Positions 16,099 to 44,153 of a DNA stretch of 48,737 bases are shown here, piece after piece (positions within the stretch are counted from its first letter, which is position 1; each line of letters starts with the position of its first letter). The notes below the pieces were generated by a model. It saw only the letters and a list, made by a program, of their open reading frames with translations. It was not told where the DNA came from and searched no databases. Source of the DNA: a phage. The stretch lies in sequence record PZ452607.1; one strand, written 5' to 3'. The position numbers and the translations under genes are program-made.

Positions 16099-19000
16099 AT
16101 GATTCAAAAAGTGATAAGCGGATCTAAAGGTGGGTCACAGAAGCCTCATAACCCAGTTGAGATGGAGGACAATCTAATCTCAATCAACAAAATCAAGATC
16201 CTGTTAGCTGTATCTGATGGTGAAATTGACGAAACATTCAGCCTGAAGCAGTTGATGTTTAACTCAGTCCCGGTGCAAAACGAGGATGGCTCATTTAACT
16301 TCGAGGGAGTAAAGGCAGAGTTCAGACCGGGGACGCAGACTCAGGAATATATCAAGGGAATGGAAGATAGCTCTAGTGAGGTAACTGTAAATCGTGAGGT
16401 TACTACCGATAACCCATACACAATCTCAGTAACCAACAAAACGCTGTCGGCAATCCGTATCAAAATGTTCATGCCTCGCGGCGTACGAATTGAAAGTAAC
16501 GGTGATAAAAATGGCGTAAGAGTTGAGTATGAGGTGCAACAAGCTGTTGATGGCGGCTCGTTTGAGACGGTGCTCACCGATGTAATCGAAGGCAAAACAA
16601 TGTCAGGTTACGATCGAAGCAGACGTGTAAACCTACCTAACTTCAACAATCAGGTGATATTCAGAGTGGTTCGGAAAACTCCAGACTCTAACGACTCGAA
16701 CGTTGTTGACGCGATTCAGGTAAAGAGCTATGCCGAGGTGATTGATGCCAAATTCCGTTATCCGCTGACTGGTCTTCTTTTTGTCGAGTTTGATTCGAAG
16801 ATGTTCCCAAACCAGTTACCTACGATCTCAATTCGTAAGCGCTGGAAGATTGTAAACGTTCCGTCAAACTATGATCCAGAATCACGAACTTATAACGGAA
16901 ATTGGGATGGAACTTTTAAGAAGGCATGGACGAATAATCCGGCCTGGGTGCTTTATGACCTGATGATTAATCAGCGTTATGGCTTGGATCAGAAAGAGCT
17001 TGGTATCGCTGTAGATAAATGGGCGCTCTACGAGGCTGCGCAATATTGCGATCAGATGGTTCCTGATGGGAAGGGCGGGACGGAACCTCGATACCTTTGC
17101 GACGTGATAATCCAGTCTCAGACTGACGCTTACAAGGTTATCCGAGATATTTGCTCAATCTTTCGTGGTATGAGCTTTTGGAATGGTGAGAGCATTTCGG
17201 TAATCATCGACAGGCCGCGTGAACCTGCGTACATCTTCACTAACGACAACGTTGTTAATGGTGACTTCTCCTACACGTTCGCAAGCGAAAAGAGCATGTA
17301 CACGACGTGTAATGTGATGTTTGATGATGAACAAAACATGTATCAGCAGGACGTTGAGCCAGTATTCGATCGTGAGGCTACTCTACGGTTTGGGAACAAC
17401 GTTACGAGCATTACAGCGATCGGTTGCACACGTCGAAGCGAGGCCAACCGACGCGGGAGATGGATTCTGAAAACTAACCTCCGCAGCACTACGGTAAACT
17501 TCGCTACCGGGCTTGAGGGCATGATCCCAACAATCGGAGATGTTGTGGCAATAGCTGATAACTTCTGGTCAAGTAACTTGACAATGAACCTGTCAGGGCG
17601 TTTGCTCGAAGTGTCTGGAAGTCAGATTTTCTTGCCGTTCCGGGTGGATGCACGCGCTGGTGACTTTATTATCGTAAATAAGCCAGATGGCAAGCCTGTG
17701 AAGCGCACAATCTCAAGTGTTAGTGCGGATGGTAAGACTATAGAGGTTAACATTGGCTTTGGCTTTCCTGTGAAGCCTAACACGGTATTCGCTATCGACC
17801 GCACCGACATTGCGTTACAGCAGTACGTCGTGACAAAAATCGATAAGGGCGATGATGATGAGGAATTTACCTACAAAATAACGGCGGTGGAGTACGATCC
17901 TAACAAGTATGATGAGATTGATTACGGAGTTAACATCGACGACCGACCGACGAGCATCGTTGAACCAGATCAGATCCCTAGACCGAAAAATGTGCAAGTA
18001 TCCTCAGAGTCGAGAATCGTCCAGGGGATGAGCGTAGAAACGATGATTGTTAGCTGGGATAAAGTTCCGTACGCTGTTTTCTATGACGTCCAGTGGCGAA
18101 AGGATAACGGTAACTGGCAAAATGTACCGCAGACAGCAAACAAAGAGGTATACGTTGAAGGTATTTACGCTGGCAACTATCAGGTTCGCGTTCGCTCAGT
18201 CGCTGGTTCGGGCACGACTTCAGGCTGGTCAAATATCGTCGCGGCAACGTTGACGGGTAAACAGGGTGAACCGGGCCGAACGATTAACCTCACAGCTACG
18301 GATGATGTTGTTTTTGGTATCCGTACAAAATGGGGGTTCTCTGATGGTTCTGGAGATACAGCCTATACAGAGTTGCAACAGTCACCGGATGGAACAGTGG
18401 ATAACGCAAGTTTGCTTTCTTTGATTCCGTATCCGCAGCATGAGTATTATCACTCACCAATGCCTGGAGGGAATATTGTTTGGTATCGGGTAAGGACGGT
18501 TGACAGGATCGGTAACGTGTCTCAGTGGACTGATTTTGTCAGAGGTATGGCATCAACAAACGTTGACGATATCATTGGGGAGATTTCTGTTGATATCGAA
18601 AACTCACCTGGTTACGAGTGGCTTGTTGATAACGCAACAGACAACGCGGCGCAGAACTCAGCTAACGCAGAGGCAGCAATAGAAAACGCGCTCGCCAATG
18701 ACAAAGACGCGATCTACATGAAGAAGGAGAACGGAAAACGAAAAGCTGAGTACACGAAATCACTGAAACTTATTGCTGATGAGACGCAGGCACGAGTGAC
18801 GGCGATCGAGCAATTGAAGGCAAGTTTTGGCGATCAGATTAGCGCTAGCAACAGCGAGCTGCGTGAGGTTATCGCAACCGAGACTGAAGCACTATCGCGT
18901 GAGATTGACCAGCTTAAGGCTCAGATTGGTGACGATATTCAGGCAAGTCTGACTGATATTCGGGAGGCTATCGCGAACGAGACTGAGGCTAGAACGCAAG

Positions 19001-19518
19001 CTGACTTAACACTTAGCGCGCGGCTTGGAAATAACGAGGCGGCACTTGCTCAAAAACTAGACTCGTGGAGTAACGCGGATTCTACTGGTGCAATGTACGG
19101 TGTCAAGTTGGGTCTGAAATACAACGGCCAGGAATACAGTGCAGGCATGGCTATGTCTCTAGTTGGTTCCGGAGCTGCGGTTAAGGCGCAGATTTTGTTT
19201 GAGGCGTCACGATTTGCCATCATGACTGGAATGAATGGTCAGACTCAGTACCCCTTCGTTGTTGAGAATGGTCAGGTTATTTTAAGTAGCGCGATTATCA
19301 AGAACGGATTCATCACCAACGCAATGATTGGAAACTTCATCCAGTCGAATAACTATGTATTTAACAAGTCCGGATGGAGGCTTGACAAGGGTGGAACATT
19401 CGAAAATTACGGAAGTGACGGTGAGGGTGCAATGAAGCAAACTAATACCACAATATCTGTTAGGGATGCGAGTGGTCGCCTGAGGGTTCAGATTGGCAGG
19501 TTGACTGGCTCATGGTAA
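16099..19518 (+). CDS. tail tip host-specificity protein (lambda J-like central fibre)
   Basis: 1139-aa ORF after K/I homologues with own promoter; coiled segment near C-terminus. Confidence 0.8.
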   Translation: MIQKVISGSKGGSQKPHNPVEMEDNLISINKIKILLAVSDGEIDETFSLKQLMFNSVPVQNEDGSFNFEGVKAEFRPGTQTQEYIKGMEDSSSEVTVNREVTTDNPYTISVTNKTLSAIRIKMFMPRGVRIESNGDKNGVRVEYEVQQAVDGGSFETVLTDVIEGKTMSGYDRSRRVNLPNFNNQVIFRVVRKTPDSNDSNVVDAIQVKSYAEVIDAKFRYPLTGLLFVEFDSKMFPNQLPTISIRKRWKIVNVPSNYDPESRTYNGNWDGTFKKAWTNNPAWVLYDLMINQRYGLDQKELGIAVDKWALYEAAQYCDQMVPDGKGGTEPRYLCDVIIQSQTDAYKVIRDICSIFRGMSFWNGESISVIIDRPREPAYIFTNDNVVNGDFSYTFASEKSMYTTCNVMFDDEQNMYQQDVEPVFDREATLRFGNNVTSITAIGCTRRSEANRRGRWILKTNLRSTTVNFATGLEGMIPTIGDVVAIADNFWSSNLTMNLSGRLLEVSGSQIFLPFRVDARAGDFIIVNKPDGKPVKRTISSVSADGKTIEVNIGFGFPVKPNTVFAIDRTDIALQQYVVTKIDKGDDDEEFTYKITAVEYDPNKYDEIDYGVNIDDRPTSIVEPDQIPRPKNVQVSSESRIVQGMSVETMIVSWDKVPYAVFYDVQWRKDNGNWQNVPQTANKEVYVEGIYAGNYQVRVRSVAGSGTTSGWSNIVAATLTGKQGEPGRTINLTATDDVVFGIRTKWGFSDGSGDTAYTELQQSPDGTVDNASLLSLIPYPQHEYYHSPMPGGNIVWYRVRTVDRIGNVSQWTDFVRGMASTNVDDIIGEISVDIENSPGYEWLVDNATDNAAQNSANAEAAIENALANDKDAIYMKKENGKRKAEYTKSLKLIADETQARVTAIEQLKASFGDQISASNSELREVIATETEALSREIDQLKAQIGDDIQASLTDIREAIANETEARTQADLTLSARLGNNEAALAQKLDSWSNADSTGAMYGVKLGLKYNGQEYSAGMAMSLVGSGAAVKAQILFEASRFAIMTGMNGQTQYPFVVENGQVILSSAIIKNGFITNAMIGNFIQSNNYVFNKSGWRLDKGGTFENYGSDGEGAMKQTNTTISVRDASGRLRVQIGRLTGSW

Positions 19519-20579: not shown

Positions 20580-20807
20580 TTATATCGAGCAATCGTGAGA
20601 TTTGAAGTTTTTCTCTGATACATAGTTGAAGGAGAATGGGTATCCAGCACGCAATACCATCTCCTTTCCGCGCATCTTAGATCCAAAAACGTAAACCGAG
20701 TACTCCGCGCCGCCTGATTCATAAATTGCCGTGCAAGTGCGCTCAGGCATCGATGAGCAACCAGTCAGGATGAATGCCGCAGCGATAATGGTGATTAACT
20801 TTTTCAT
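20580..20807 (-). CDS. small lipoprotein, candidate Cor/Llp-like superinfection-exclusion protein
   Basis: Signal peptide with lipobox LTGC; two later Cys; own sigma70-like promoter; adjacent to receptor-binding tail genes as for known exclusion lipoproteins. Confidence 0.45.
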   Translation of the reverse strand: MKKLITIIAAAFILTGCSSMPERTCTAIYESGGAEYSVYVFGSKMRGKEMVLRAGYPFSFNYVSEKNFKSHDCSI

Positions 20808-34050: not shown

Positions 34051-34538
34051 TGAGTTTAAAAAATAACGTTATAGGCGCATCAATCGGGGCCGCTTTGACG
34101 TTGACACCTACCCTACTGGAACGGATCGAAGGTATAGAATACGAGGTTTATTACGATATCGCCGGAGTCCCTACCGTATGCAGCGGAATAACCGGGCCTG
34201 ACGTCATACCTGGTAAGAAATACACTAAGCGAGAATGCGATGCATTGCTGATAAAACATATCGGCGTCGCTCAGCGATACGTTGACAAGAAGGTTAAGGT
34301 TGACATTCCGGTAACTATGCGCGCATCACTGTATAGCTTCACTTTCAACGTTGGGACTGGCGCTTTCGGATCGTCTACAATGCTTAAGCTAATCAATCAG
34401 CGCAAGCACAAAGAAGCGTGTAATCAGTTATGGCGATGGGTATACTACTACAACCCAAAAACCAAAAAGCGCGAAGTGTCGAGAGGGATCAAGAATCGGC
34501 GCGCTGAAGAATACGCATATTGCGTTAAGGAACTATAA
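34050..34538 (+). CDS. endolysin (lysozyme, GH24-like)
   Basis: Catalytic triad spacing E-x8-D-x5-T ([13 protein letters not shown]); ATGA overlap with holin. Confidence 0.7.
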
Positions 34539-34939
34539 TGAAACTTAAGAAAACGTGCATTGCAATTACGGTTGCTGTTGGTGTGATTTCTCTATCCGGT
34601 TGTTCGACGGCATCTGCTCTGAGTGGTTTACTTTCTGACTCCCCGGATGTTACGGCGCAGGTTGGCGCTGAGAACACAAAACAACTAGCAGGAGTAACAG
34701 CAAAGGCGGATGATAAGCGAGAAGTGAAGGTGAGTGATTCAAATATTGGCAAGATTGACTCATCCGTCAAGAAGTCCGTGGAGGTGTCAACCATTCAGGC
34801 CAACACGGTTAACGCTGAAAGCATCACAGTAACCAAATCTGGAAGCTGGTACGATCCTGTGGTTTGCTGGATTCTCGTTTTTATTGTCCTGTTGCTGTTT
34901 TATTTTTTAATTCGTAAGCACGAAAAAAAGGAGGCGTAA
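34538..34939 (+). CDS. unimolecular spanin (lipoprotein with C-terminal TMD)
   Basis: Lipobox LSGC at N-terminus and a single C-terminal TMD, the T1 gp11-type architecture. Confidence 0.6.
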   Translation: MKLKKTCIAITVAVGVISLSGCSTASALSGLLSDSPDVTAQVGAENTKQLAGVTAKADDKREVKVSDSNIGKIDSSVKKSVEVSTIQANTVNAESITVTKSGSWYDPVVCWILVFIVLLLFYFLIRKHEKKEA

Positions 34940-40919: not shown

Positions 40920-41246
40920 ATGTTTAATATCAAACCATTAACAGAAGCAGAGAAACAGGCTCAGGCCAAGCAAACCGAAAACATCCAAGTGATCGCTGAT
41001 GCGCTGATTGGTAAGAGGTCAATCAAAATAAACCTCGACACTGTTGGTCAGTCATTTTTTACTAAAGGTTTGGATAAGTACGTTATAAATGTGAAGGCGA
41101 GAGACCTGGTGGCGAGAATTCAAAAGCTAAACAATCAAAAGCTAAAGCTCATCAAGGTCGAAGGCAACATGTGCGAAATTGAGAACCTCAGCGCACCAGA
41201 CCCGAATAAGTGGGAAATCACCGATGTCGAGTTTATCGTAGAATAG
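40920..41246 (+). CDS. hypothetical protein
   Basis: RBS AAGGAGAAG; stop TAG lies inside a box copy. Confidence 0.45.
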   Translation: MFNIKPLTEAEKQAQAKQTENIQVIADALIGKRSIKINLDTVGQSFFTKGLDKYVINVKARDLVARIQKLNNQKLKLIKVEGNMCEIENLSAPDPNKWEITDVEFIVE

Positions 41247-41286
41247 CACTTTTTGTTAAAACCGGATCGGGGTATCTTGCTATAGT
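41243..41286 (+). promoter_or_regulatory. box + hairpin + extended -10 element
   Basis: AATAGCACTTTTTGTTAAAAC, 22 nt, TGcTATAGT; stem GGGGTA/TACCCC. Confidence 0.55.
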
Positions 41287-41324
41287 TACCCCATCAAAAC
41301 GAGATACCAATCAGAGGAATCACC

Positions 41325-41555
41325 ATGTCAATCGTCAAGAACCAGCAAGCCATCGATTCAACCAATAACAACCGCTTTGCTATTTTCATCACTCGCGACA
41401 ACAAGCGCTTTGCAGTAAAGGCCGTACCAGGTGGATACAAAACCTACATGGAAGATAACGGAAAGTGGGTGCGGTGCGACAACCTCGCAAACTTCTTGGT
41501 CTGGAACGCAGACCTGCAGGGATTCGATGACATCAGCACTTTAATTGAGGAGTAA
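41325..41555 (+). CDS. hypothetical protein
   Basis: RBS AGAGGAA; box/hairpin/-10 element upstream. Confidence 0.45.
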   Translation: MSIVKNQQAIDSTNNNRFAIFITRDNKRFAVKAVPGGYKTYMEDNGKWVRCDNLANFLVWNADLQGFDDISTLIEE

Positions 41556-41560
41556 TAATC

Positions 41561-41788
41561 ATGCCACGTTACAGCAACCTAACTCAACTAACCCGCGTCA
41601 ACGGGCACATGATCCCGGCAAAATCCACTCACTACGCAATGGGAGCAAAGCACGGATTGTATTTCAAATGGCGCGGTCAATGGAACTTCACGGTTATTCG
41701 TAATTTCTACATTAGAGTTACAGGTGATGACCCGCAATCGGTCGTAGAGAACTCAATCGGCGACAACAAGATCGAGGTGCTGAAATGA
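41561..41788 (+). CDS. hypothetical protein
   Basis: RBS GAGGAG shortly after previous stop. Confidence 0.45.
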   Translation: MPRYSNLTQLTRVNGHMIPAKSTHYAMGAKHGLYFKWRGQWNFTVIRNFYIRVTGDDPQSVVENSIGDNKIEVLK

Positions 41789-41895
41789 ACTTCAACATAA
41801 TTGCTTTCTGGTCTGCCGTATGGTTCTTTTGCGTAGGTCATGTTGTGGTTGGAATCGTAATCATGTTGCTACTGTGTGCGGGAGCGTTCGAATGA
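41785..41895 (+). CDS. small hydrophobic membrane peptide (36 aa)
   Basis: ATGA overlap with previous gene; one predicted TMD; not in ORF track. Confidence 0.35.
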   Translation: MNFNIIAFWSAVWFFCVGHVVVGIVIMLLLCAGAFE

Positions 41896-42065
41896 TGCGG
41901 ATTCTGATTTGCATGATGGCGGCGGTCGCCATGGCTATCCTGGTAGTGTCCGGCTGCGGCGAGGCCAGGGATAGCTGTCATGAAACCGGGAGCCAGGTTA
42001 CTACTTTCGTGATGGTTGGCAACGTATTGCTACCAATAACATCAAATGAAATCACTTGCGAATAG
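41892..42065 (+). CDS. small lipoprotein (57 aa)
   Basis: Signal peptide with lipobox VVSGC; start overlaps stop of preceding peptide; stop inside a box copy. Confidence 0.4.
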   Translation: MMRILICMMAAVAMAILVVSGCGEARDSCHETGSQVTTFVMVGNVLLPITSNEITCE

Positions 42066-42105
42066 CACTTTTTGTTAAAACTCAACTCCGGGGTTGCGAT
42101 ATAGT
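42061..42105 (+). promoter_or_regulatory. box + hairpin + -10 element
   Basis: AATAGCACTTTTTGTTAAAAC, 22 nt, TATAGT; stem GGGGTT/AACCCC. Confidence 0.55.
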
Positions 42106-42136
42106 AACCCCATCGACAACGAACGAGGACGCAAAC

Positions 42137-43411: not shown

Positions 43412-43786
43412 ATGAAATTCGAATGTATCAGCGATAACACCAAAAAATTTACTGTTGGCAAAATTTACGATGTTCCGACTGAGCACACAGAGCAAACCGT
43501 AGCTCTGACCGACGACACGGGCCGCAACCGAATTGCAACCGTAACTCACAACGGTGAAGGTCTTCGCTGGAATAGCGGCGGCACTAAGTTCGCAACGTTC
43601 GACAAGAAGCGCAAGCGCACCTTCCGCGTCAACGGCAATGTTGCAGCTAACAAGATCCATAACGTCAAGCCGTCGGAAGTTGACCGCAAGCCAGCGCTGA
43701 AGTTTAAAGAGAAGGTGGATTTATTCAATCTTGCCGCCTCGCTTGTTCTCCTGGTCGCTGCTATTTCGCTGCTTTCCATCATGTAA
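43412..43786 (+). CDS. hypothetical C-tail-anchored membrane protein
   Basis: RBS GGAGG; soluble basic domain then one C-terminal TMD; followed by terminator. Confidence 0.45.
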   Translation: MKFECISDNTKKFTVGKIYDVPTEHTEQTVALTDDTGRNRIATVTHNGEGLRWNSGGTKFATFDKKRKRTFRVNGNVAANKIHNVKPSEVDRKPALKFKEKVDLFNLAASLVLLVAAISLLSIM

Positions 43787-43828: not shown

Positions 43829-43934
43829 GAGAAAACACTATGCCAGACTTTTCTAACTGGAATAACGAGCCGCCATCATTTCAGGAGTTGCTATTCTGCC
43901 TCCTGGTCCTGACATTATCTCTTAAGGGTGTTTT

Positions 43935-44153
43935 ATGGCTACTATCATGACAGTAGAAGATGCAGCACGCGATGCAGTGGAAGGAATGCGCCCAAATACC
44001 TCCAGAATAGCACACTACTACAAATCTGAGGTGTCGGTAGTGCAATTGGTCCACGAAATTTTAAGGCTCCCACAAGTCGATTCAGCGCGCGTTGTGACGT
44101 GCTTAAAAAATTATTTTTGCATCACTATTAAAACGAATAGCACGAATTGCTAA
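43935..44153 (+). CDS. hypothetical protein
   Basis: 72-aa ORF; 3' end reads through box copy; overlaps a possible 36-aa hydrophobic ORF at 43840..43950. Confidence 0.3.
   Translation: MATIMTVEDAARDAVEGMRPNTSRIAHYYKSEVSVVQLVHEILRLPQVDSARVVTCLKNYFCITIKTNSTNC

Follow-up and report, generated by a model that had tools for sequence, protein, structure and literature searches.

What do the two very small, overlapping genes at positions 41785 to 42065 of the phage sequence record PZ452607.1 contribute to the phage that carries them? The window, by which we mean the whole stretch of 48,737 nucleotides (nt) that was analysed, is the genome of coliphage T1 in a rotated form: 2 kb around the two genes are 100% identical to Escherichia phage T1, with T1 position 1207 corresponding to window position 41000. 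The genes are ORF73 (open reading frame 73) and ORF72, and we refer to their products as gp73, a predicted membrane peptide of 36 amino acids (aa), and gp72, a putative lipoprotein of 57 aa. T1 belongs to the classic phages, but for the majority of its presumptive early genes no function is known; ORF73 and ORF72 are among the smallest of these. Our analysis indicates that both are genuine protein-coding genes that accompany each other in T1-like phages and can occur apart. Our best explanation, coupled accessory genes of which ORF72 would encode a tethered hairpin that hinders the entry of later phages, receives as a whole a probability of roughly 0.35.

ORF73 runs from the ATG at 41785 to the TGA ending at 41895, with the product MNFNIIAFWSAVWFFCVGHVVVGIVIMLLLCAGAFE, and ORF72 from the ATG at 41892 to the TAG ending at 42065, with the product MMRILICMMAAVAMAILVVSGCGEARDSCHETGSQVTTFVMVGNVLLPITSNEITCE, as read from the sequence and its list of ORFs. 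The ORF73 stop and the ORF72 start share the letters ATGA (41892–41895), as do the stop of the 75-aa ORF74 and the start of ORF73 (41785–41788), and a Shine-Dalgarno-like motif is found 5–7 nt 5′ of both the ORF73 and the ORF72 starts. A preliminary description of this DNA had reported the same coordinates, translations, overlap between the two frames and VVSGC lipobox, all of which prove correct on re-reading; its remark that the 36-aa ORF was missing from the gene track applies to the track that it used, because GenBank annotates ORF73. In the entries AY216660 and MK213796, ORF73 is CPTT1_005 (T1 1992–2102, 36 aa, described as having a ‘single transmembrane domain’) and ORF72 is CPTT1_006 (T1 2099–2272, 57 aa), both as hypothetical proteins. 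The GenBank entry cites the T1 genome paper (PMID 14972552), and the 2.8-kb terminal repeat marked in MK213796 includes both. As genes, ORF73 and ORF72 are already known from this annotation.

Evidence that the two frames are used as proteins comes from 12 Tunavirus loci, namely T1 and 11 loci from IMG/VR (L004–L014). The 505-nt block of ORF74, ORF73 and ORF72 aligns without gaps across all of them at 85–89% nucleotide identity, and every locus retains ORF73 and ORF72 intact, along with the two ATGA junctions and the two Shine-Dalgarno sequences. The ratio of nonsynonymous to synonymous change (dN/dS) is 0.07 in the ORF73 frame, at a synonymous divergence (pS) of 0.40, versus 1.3 and 3.5 in the other two frames; for ORF72 it is 0.12 (0.14 over the mature part) versus 2.1 and 1.06, and the annotated frame of ORF74 gives 0.15. 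Variable columns at codon positions 1, 2 and 3 number 8, 4 and 21 in ORF73, 9, 9 and 36 in ORF72, and 19, 14 and 44 in ORF74. Because the ratios are low in frame and above 1 off frame, which is strong evidence, both peptides appear to be translated and selected as proteins. ORF73 and ORF72 are almost certainly real translated genes, as the preliminary description had supposed, and the coupling overlap that it pointed out is conserved throughout the Tunavirus loci. In Shigella phage vB_SsoS_008 (L015, 2288–2790), frame shifts disrupt the homologues of ORF74, ORF73 and ORF72 alike; either the record contains sequencing errors or the unit is decaying as a whole.

These comparisons also bear on the proposal that ORF73 is a coupling or leader frame that delivers ribosomes to ORF72 and whose peptide has no function. 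ATGA overlaps on both of its sides would suit such a role, as would an ORF72 Shine-Dalgarno sequence that lies inside the last ORF73 codons, in a junction that is reused in Escherichia phage vB_EcoS_IME347. However, the low dN/dS extends across the whole peptide at considerable synonymous divergence, the family persists at 41–47% identity in another genus with different neighbours, and a Gly-His pair in the middle of the helix is invariant. The leader-frame reading is disfavoured by these comparisons and hardly credible.

The peptide itself has the character of a single membrane helix. gp73 contains no Lys or Arg and only one acidic residue, which is C-terminal, and its grand average of hydropathy (GRAVY) is 1.86. 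AlphaFold2 predicts one continuous helix over residues 5–31 with a predicted local distance difference test score (pLDDT) of 91, in agreement with the hydrophobic membrane peptide of the preliminary description. It aligns with positions 1–36 of the 36 in phrog_25570 with an expectation value (E) of 3e-26. Relatives of gp73 fall into two groups, one in Tunavirus and one in Badaguanvirus-type phages, the latter at the 41–47% identity given above; common to both are the start MN, the invariant Gly-His halfway along the helix and, at the C terminus, AGAF with acidic residues after it. A sequence-profile search of the PDB with the gp73 family gave chance matches at most (NusG and ankyrin entries, seen across the gp73 and gp72 searches).

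In IME347 (L016; MH051918, 1750–1860), the homologue is an unannotated 36-aa ORF, MNPLAFGTAIFFLATGHFWLFIVTMILIGAGAFDDD, that overlaps its upstream gene by ATGA and in whose 3′ end the next gene starts. The junction GCGGGAGC is found again there, 5′ of a different downstream gene. Because GGGAG within the AGAF codons is the ribosome binding site in both T1 and IME347 despite unrelated next genes, the conservation of AGAF may partly be a constraint at the nucleotide level. The 36-aa genes of T1-like phages thus appear to be real, yet they are often missed: gene callers overlook the ORF73 family in most records, including that of IME347.

gp72 starts with a short n-region, MMR, followed by the hydrophobic core ILICMMAAVAMAILV and the lipobox V-S-G-Cys22. 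This is the layout of bacterial lipoprotein precursors, the substrates of Sec, Lgt and signal peptidase II: a short, positively charged n-region, an uncharged hydrophobic core and a lipobox, [LVI][ASTVI][GAS]C, within the first ~35 residues. When all reading frames of the window were scanned with a PROSITE-style lipobox pattern, only 10 of the 1609 candidate starts of ≥30 aa matched, gp72 among them, and three of the matches belong to real genes: the unimolecular spanin (u-spanin; 34538–34939), Cor (20580–20807, minus strand) and ORF72. This suggests that T1 encodes exactly three lipoproteins. The lipobox cysteine is kept in at least 90% of Tunavirus sequences and is also present in the more distant relatives P0030–P0032 and P0035 and in those from Streptomyces phages, described below. 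Single isolates carry changes in the homologues of 41952–41957, Cys22Phe in L011 and Gly21Val in L013; these could be mistakes in the sequence, or lipidation may have been lost and the loss tolerated. With its conserved signal peptide and lipobox, gp72 is very probably a lipoprotein, and the earlier call of a small lipoprotein is upheld.

The mature part of gp72, ~35 residues long, is predicted to be dominated by one structural element. AlphaFold2 places a signal helix at residues 2–19 and a long beta-hairpin at 29–42 and 45–56, with a pLDDT of 69 overall and 82 at the tip. Cys29 and Cys56, both conserved, lie opposite each other at the base of the predicted hairpin; its tip, FVMVGNVLLPI, is hydrophobic and almost invariant, and the variable stretch of the protein is the short linker after the lipid anchor. 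On this model, gp72 is probably a cysteine-clamped hairpin. A Foldseek comparison of the model with the PDB and BFVD gave no match at E≤0.001, the model being too small and uncertain for a fold search. Scans of gp73 and gp72 against Pfam, NCBIfam and PADLOC returned signal-peptide matches only (for example LptM, E=0.68), and the PHROGs that the two proteins match are of unknown function, so that the earlier statement that neither has an assignable family still holds.

We asked how far the two genes depend on each other. A tblastn search with gp72 of 50,697 phage records found 56 records, which are T1-like phages of Escherichia and Shigella except for one weak partial match (E=5). gp73 is encoded in the same records at ≥75% identity, always directly upstream of ORF72. 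A search of 5.8 billion proteins with gp72 returned 22 clusters only. A prophage or moron origin was rejected, as no similarity to the 281-nt region was found in 5,426 complete E. coli genomes.

Adjacency, ATGA coupling and a fixed 107-nt offset hold the two genes together in about 55 Tunavirus records, and both products are predicted to be membrane-targeted. These properties would fit one two-component envelope complex, in which an inner-membrane peptide and an outer-membrane lipoprotein form a miniature spanin-like or exclusion assembly. However, each gene also occurs without the other. In Badaguanvirus-type phages, the gp73-like peptide is flanked by unrelated genes on both sides: upstream is a 66- or 81-aa protein that is not DUF7274, the family of ORF74, and downstream are genes for a soluble protein of 66 aa (phrog_9181) and a membrane protein of 65 aa (phrog_9755). 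On L017, a divergent T1-like contig, a 58-aa relative of gp72, P0019 (57% identity), is encoded 4 nt after ORF74, with no ORF73 and no lipobox cysteine, and among annotated genes no ORF of the 36-aa class precedes the Streptomyces phage relatives.

A natural deletion separates the two genes further. On a T1-like metagenome scaffold of 49,899 bp (L029, 3001–3312), ORF73 is intact and ORF72 is cut after approximately residue 37; the deletion is in frame and joins the start of ORF72 to the membrane-anchored C-terminal portion of ORF68, removing the hairpin and ORF71–69. The same fusion is found on L030, placing the deletion in more than one assembly, and the fused gene would encode a lipoprotein that ends in a transmembrane segment. 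Because L029 has lost the hairpin, the gp72 hairpin appears dispensable for propagation, assuming that the assembly represents a viable phage. In addition, gp73 has essentially no extramembrane part with which to reach a periplasmic partner, and the lysis cassette of T1 already contains a u-spanin. A two-component complex is unlikely in the light of these observations.

Of the pair proposed in the preliminary description, the adjacency and the ATGA coupling stand within Tunavirus, and the mutual dependence that the word implies does not. The roles that it named for such pairs, namely exclusion, host membrane targeting or escape from abortive infection, are guesses as far as these two genes are concerned. 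Judged from the sequence comparisons, ORF73 and ORF72 are conserved but dispensable accessory genes that form no obligate pair, and they are better treated as two separate genes. ORF74 and ORF73 were considered as the conserved pair instead, but in IME347 the ORF73-like peptide is preceded by a gene unrelated to DUF7274, and this pairing was rejected.

Clues to where gp72 acts come from its wider family. Residues 1–57 of gp72 align with positions 6–65 of the 66 in phrog_8628 (E=7e-29), and phrog_15073 is matched weakly (E=0.004); these two families and phrog_25570 are all of unknown function in PHROG. Relatives are sparse: an exhaustive HMMER profile search of 1.84 billion representative proteins added the small lipoproteins P0030–P0032 (E of 5e-4 to 9e-4), and a follow-up profile search added P0033 and P0035, with P0036 and P0037 marginal. 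The independent PHROG profiles bear the relationship out, as P0030 and P0031 match phrog_8628 at 2e-9 and 1e-6 and phrog_15073 at 3e-11 and 7e-10, respectively. The members of phrog_15073 include lipoproteins of Streptomyces phages, Rowa gp47 (2.5e-17) and a Vanseggelen protein (2.6e-23), and hhalign relates the T1-type alignment to the Streptomyces phage group with a probability of 96.5% (E=1e-9). We consider phrog_8628, from T1-like phages, and phrog_15073, from Streptomyces phages, to be distantly related on these alignments, a relationship that is drawn here and is absent from the PHROG records.

The relatives share a layout of a lipid-anchor Cys, 4–8 residues, a second Cys and a Glu-x-x-Cys near the end, and a hairpin that turns at G-[KN] and contains an invariant Pro-[IV]; the distant ones keep C..C and G-x4-P-[IV]. 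In gp72, Gly43, Pro48 and Glu53 are invariant positions. P0019, P0033 and P0037 have no lipobox cysteine and carry a hydrophobic anchor segment in its place. Relatives with usable context are encoded among short overlapping genes in early or nucleotide-metabolism regions of phages. The annotated gene upstream is thyX in Rowa and encodes a 118-aa protein in Vanseggelen, and P0032 is encoded on a 91-kb contig with a GC content of ~56% that matched nothing in the phage collection at either the DNA or the protein level. One hairpin domain thus seems to be tethered by lipid in some proteins and by a transmembrane segment in others, and the phages concerned infect both bacteria that have an outer membrane and bacteria that lack one. 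Because the anchors are exchanged and some hosts have no outer membrane, the domain most likely acts in the wall zone or on the external side of the cytoplasmic membrane. The transmembrane-anchored and Streptomyces phage relatives likewise make an outer-membrane-specific target, such as FhuA or TonB, unlikely for the family, and outer-membrane targets would not be the first place to look for gp72.

This distribution also weighs on a more specific proposal, that TTFVMVG in gp72 mimics a TonB box and CVGHVVVG in gp73 mimics the TonB helix around His20, so that TonB would be shut down after infection. TonB boxes are of the DTIVVTA type, with an acidic residue at position 1, Thr at 2 and Val at 5. 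TTFVMVG agrees with this consensus at positions 2 and 4 only, lacking the acidic residue 1 and Val 5, and none of its relatives, which read PTYVMAG, TTYVMVG and KTYYIQS, has those residues. The likeness of the motifs to TonB boxes and to the TonB membrane anchor is therefore superficial; the PDB profile search gave no TonB or transporter match for either protein, the Streptomyces phage relatives serve hosts without an outer membrane, and the anchor can be replaced by a transmembrane segment. Although T1 needs both FhuA and TonB (PMC13164509, PMC9586334), we dropped this mimicry as very improbable because of the motif misfit, the missing PDB match and the Streptomyces phage relatives.

The explanation that we favour combines these properties as follows. 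ORF73 and ORF72 would be independent, non-essential accessory genes of T1-like phages; they would close the four-gene unit ORF75-74-73-72, and translational coupling would link their expression. gp73 would span the inner membrane with one helix of 27 residues and act as a separate small modulator there. gp72 would be exported by the Sec pathway, lipidated on Cys22 and cleaved by signal peptidase II, leaving in the periplasm a lipid-anchored peptide of ~35 residues that would fold as a beta-hairpin, probably closed by a Cys29–Cys56 disulfide. The helix, hairpin, disulfide and locations are all predictions. The hairpin would most likely act just outside the cytoplasmic membrane and not on an outer-membrane receptor, altering the envelope of the infected cell so that later phages fail to complete entry. 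The step blocked would be passage of the wall or DNA entry at the inner membrane, separate from the block of FhuA by Cor. Small early lipoproteins, Llp, Cor and Rtp45, exclude superinfecting phages (PMC9586334, PMC12685063), and T4 Imm and Sp prevent DNA injection (PMC11436027). By analogy with these, gp72 may tentatively be regarded as an entry-blocking (superinfection exclusion) factor, a possibility that we place well below even odds.

Several points weigh against this explanation. T1 already has Cor for exclusion at FhuA, and gp72 has no detectable homology to Cor beyond the signal peptide. The hairpin model is of moderate confidence and was built on a shallow alignment, and the PDB sequence-profile search with the gp72 family, like that with gp73, gave chance matches at most. 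The link to Streptomyces phages is partly circular, as two of the four rows in that alignment are intermediates found with the T1 profile. The residue at +2, next to Cys22, is Gly; in E. coli, lipoproteins with Gly in this place can normally be carried to the outer membrane by Lol, and because transfer there is permitted, the location of gp72 is a prediction only. A literature search found no mention of ORF73, ORF72 or their PHROG and Pfam neighbours, and exclusion is only one of several uses that phages may have for small envelope proteins.

Among those other uses, gp73 and gp72 could be host-takeover effectors that perturb membrane energisation, a transporter, cell-wall enzymes or division to favour phage development. 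Their position among presumptive early genes, adjoining nucleotide-metabolism genes, is consistent with this, as are the size and composition of gp73, which resemble those of small hydrophobic toxins or regulators; a target in the wall or the membrane would also suit a family common to phages of Gram-negative and Gram-positive hosts. However, the PHROG, Pfam, NCBIfam, PADLOC and PDB scans revealed no homology to a known toxin, holin or regulator family, the natural deletion indicates that the gp72 hairpin is not needed for propagation, and the distribution is narrow, with essentially one genus per Escherichia-type family. We regard host takeover as somewhat unlikely.

Small accessory genes of phage early regions are often counter-defence genes, and by this general rule the two proteins might neutralise a membrane-associated abortive-infection or exclusion system of the host, with a patchy accessory distribution of the kind that an arms race would leave. 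However, they match no PADLOC model or known anti-defence family, and selection is strongly purifying, with very low diversity in the hairpin, and not diversifying. Counter-defence appears distinctly unlikely, and entry exclusion remains our preferred reading of gp72.

A bolder extension of entry exclusion is a hitherto unrecognised superfamily of phage micro-proteins, found in T1-like and Streptomyces phages alike. Its members would be cysteine-clamped hairpins of ~30 residues, fixed by lipid or transmembrane anchors to the external side of the cytoplasmic membrane, and would jam some part of cell entry or wall passage that Gram-negative and Gram-positive hosts have in common. Candidate targets would be the tape-measure or wall-hydrolase apparatus of the incoming phage, or a universal membrane machine. 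We consider such a superfamily doubtful; if it exists, T1 would have a second exclusion layer, independent of Cor. If gp72 blocks entry away from FhuA, a very small and easily synthesised peptide scaffold would join the exclusion factors, and coliphage and actinophage biology would be linked through one shared domain. On a plainer view, ORF73 and ORF72 encode well-supported but ordinary small accessory membrane proteins of narrow distribution, with gp72 apparently dispensable.

The surroundings of the two genes are organized by a repeat (Table 1). The 21-nt sequence ATAGCACnnnTTGnTAAA occurs in 23 copies on both strands of the window, versus 0.44 expected, including those at 41243, 42062, 43328, 44137, 44657 and 46324 and at 17 further sites. 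Because copies sit just 5′ of ORF75 and 3′ of ORF72, ORF75-74-73-72 looks like one unit; its placement in an early region is presumptive and follows the literature view of T1-like genomes. The same repeat has been described for TLS and T1, with its function unresolved (PMC11447400), and no description of the hairpin and spacing that follow it was found in the literature consulted. Most copies are followed by a hairpin whose stems vary and yet stay complementary (GGGGTT/AACCCC, AAGGCC/GGCCTT, GGGGAA/TTCCCC). A −10-like hexamer, TATAGT, TATGAT or TAGAAT, often with TGn, lies in or just past this hairpin, 22 nt from TTGnTA in the copies counted by hand, which is too far for a standard sigma-70 spacer. 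The element upstream of ORF75 is a possible promoter or regulatory site.

Table 1 Features of the ORF75-74-73-72 unit and its boundaries (positions in the window)
Feature	Position	Strand	Basis or remark
Direct-repeat element: ATAGCACnnnTTGnTAAA, hairpin, −10-like TATAGT	41242..41304	+	Upstream boundary of ORF75-74-73-72
ORF75, 76 aa, first gene of unit	41325..41555	+	ORF list; GenBank CPTT1_003; phrog_11449
ORF74, 75 aa, Pfam DUF7274	41561..41788	+	DUF7274 E=7e-41; dN/dS 0.15
GAGGTG, Shine-Dalgarno-like, 5 nt 5′ of ORF73 ATG	41774..41779	+	Kept as GAGGTG or GAGGTA across 12 loci; marked as ribosome binding site in AY216660
ORF73, predicted single-pass membrane peptide, 36 aa	41785..41895	+	phrog_25570; dN/dS; AlphaFold2; GRAVY; family alignment
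GGGAG, Shine-Dalgarno-like for ORF72, within ORF73 Ala-Gly-Ala codons	41880..41884	+	Sequence; conservation in 12 loci
ORF72 predicted signal peptide, residues 1–21	41892..41954	+	Sequence; conservation; AlphaFold2; lipobox scan
ORF72 putative mature lipoprotein, Cys22 to Glu57, and stop codon	41955..42065	+	AlphaFold2; conserved cysteines; dN/dS; distant relatives
Next direct-repeat and hairpin element	42061..42123	+	Downstream boundary of ORF75-74-73-72, before ORF71

Between ORF72 and the next repeat, 8 of the 11 other Tunavirus loci encode a 63-aa acidic protein (MADFMHQMIAVFKGSDDEEVKECF...; for example L009, 3174–3370), a gene that T1 does not have. The remaining three (L005, L006 and L011) carry the same insertion of ~196 nt, in which the first-ATG scan halted at an earlier out-of-frame ATG and left the ORF unread. 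Compared in this way, the ORF75-74-73-72 unit is modular. A weak NCBIfam match (E=0.008), which falls far short of the cut-off, relates ORF74 to MAD1, a helix-turn-helix protein from a methylation-associated defence system, and hints that it may bind DNA. Further along, ORF67 (43840–43950) encodes a second 36-aa membrane peptide, MPDFSNWNNEPPSFQELLFCLLVLTLSLKGVLWLLS, which is unrelated to ORF73 and whose gene overlaps the start of ORF66 (43935–44153) by 16 nt, and ORF68 (43412–43786) encodes a protein with a C-terminal transmembrane segment. With ORF67 and ORF68 besides ORF73 and ORF72, the T1 early region appears to encode several tiny membrane proteins.

Among known systems, the Rz/Rz1 spanins likewise combine a gene for an inner-membrane protein with one for a small lipoprotein, in frames that overlap or adjoin. 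Unlike Rz, gp73 has only 36 aa, with a predicted helix at 5–31 and no periplasmic coiled-coil domain, and unlike Rz1, gp72 is not proline-rich. The two genes also lie outside the lysis cassette, in which T1 has its unimolecular spanin (PMC13164509), and weak PHROG spanin matches cover the signal peptide only. A spanin reading of ORF73 and ORF72 was ruled out by size, by location and by the T1 u-spanin.

A closer resemblance is to Cor, Llp and Rtp45 of siphophages that target FhuA or LptD, which are likewise small phage lipoproteins and are made in lytic infection (PMC9586334, PMC12685063). Like them, gp72 has a Cys that is presumably lipidated, a second Cys a few residues on and a third near the C terminus, a layout that suggests an intramolecular disulfide, and like them it is predicted to be beta-rich and exposed to the periplasm. 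Its mature part is about half the size, however, at ~35 residues versus ~59–61. Homology of gp72 to T1 Cor was tried and rejected: the hhalign probability is 17.6%, over the signal peptide and lipobox only, and there is no match to phrog_1119 (Cor). Whereas Llp adjoins pb5 (PMC9586334) and Cor lies near tail genes (PMC9586334, PMC13164509), ORF72 is in the presumptive early region, ~21 kb from the tail-tip genes (tail fibre J gene at 16099–19518). Also unlike these proteins, gp72 has relatives in Streptomyces phages and on transmembrane anchors. Because its domain occurs in phages of hosts without an outer membrane and with transmembrane anchors, Cor- or Llp-type action on FhuA is disfavoured.

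The third comparison is with Imm and Sp of phage T4 and Ltp of the streptococcal phage TP-J34. These proteins are larger than gp72 and helical, whereas gp72 is a predicted hairpin of 35 residues with no sequence or fold similarity to them in family, PDB and BFVD searches, so that the likeness would be one of functional analogy. Ltp, which is a lipoprotein, is located on the external side of the cytoplasmic membrane, and this matches the location implied for the Gram-positive and transmembrane-anchored relatives of gp72. Like Imm and Sp (PMC11436027), and like Ltp, gp72 would be a small phage envelope protein, made early or constitutively, that leaves the surface receptor alone and acts at the step of entry through the wall and the cytoplasmic membrane.

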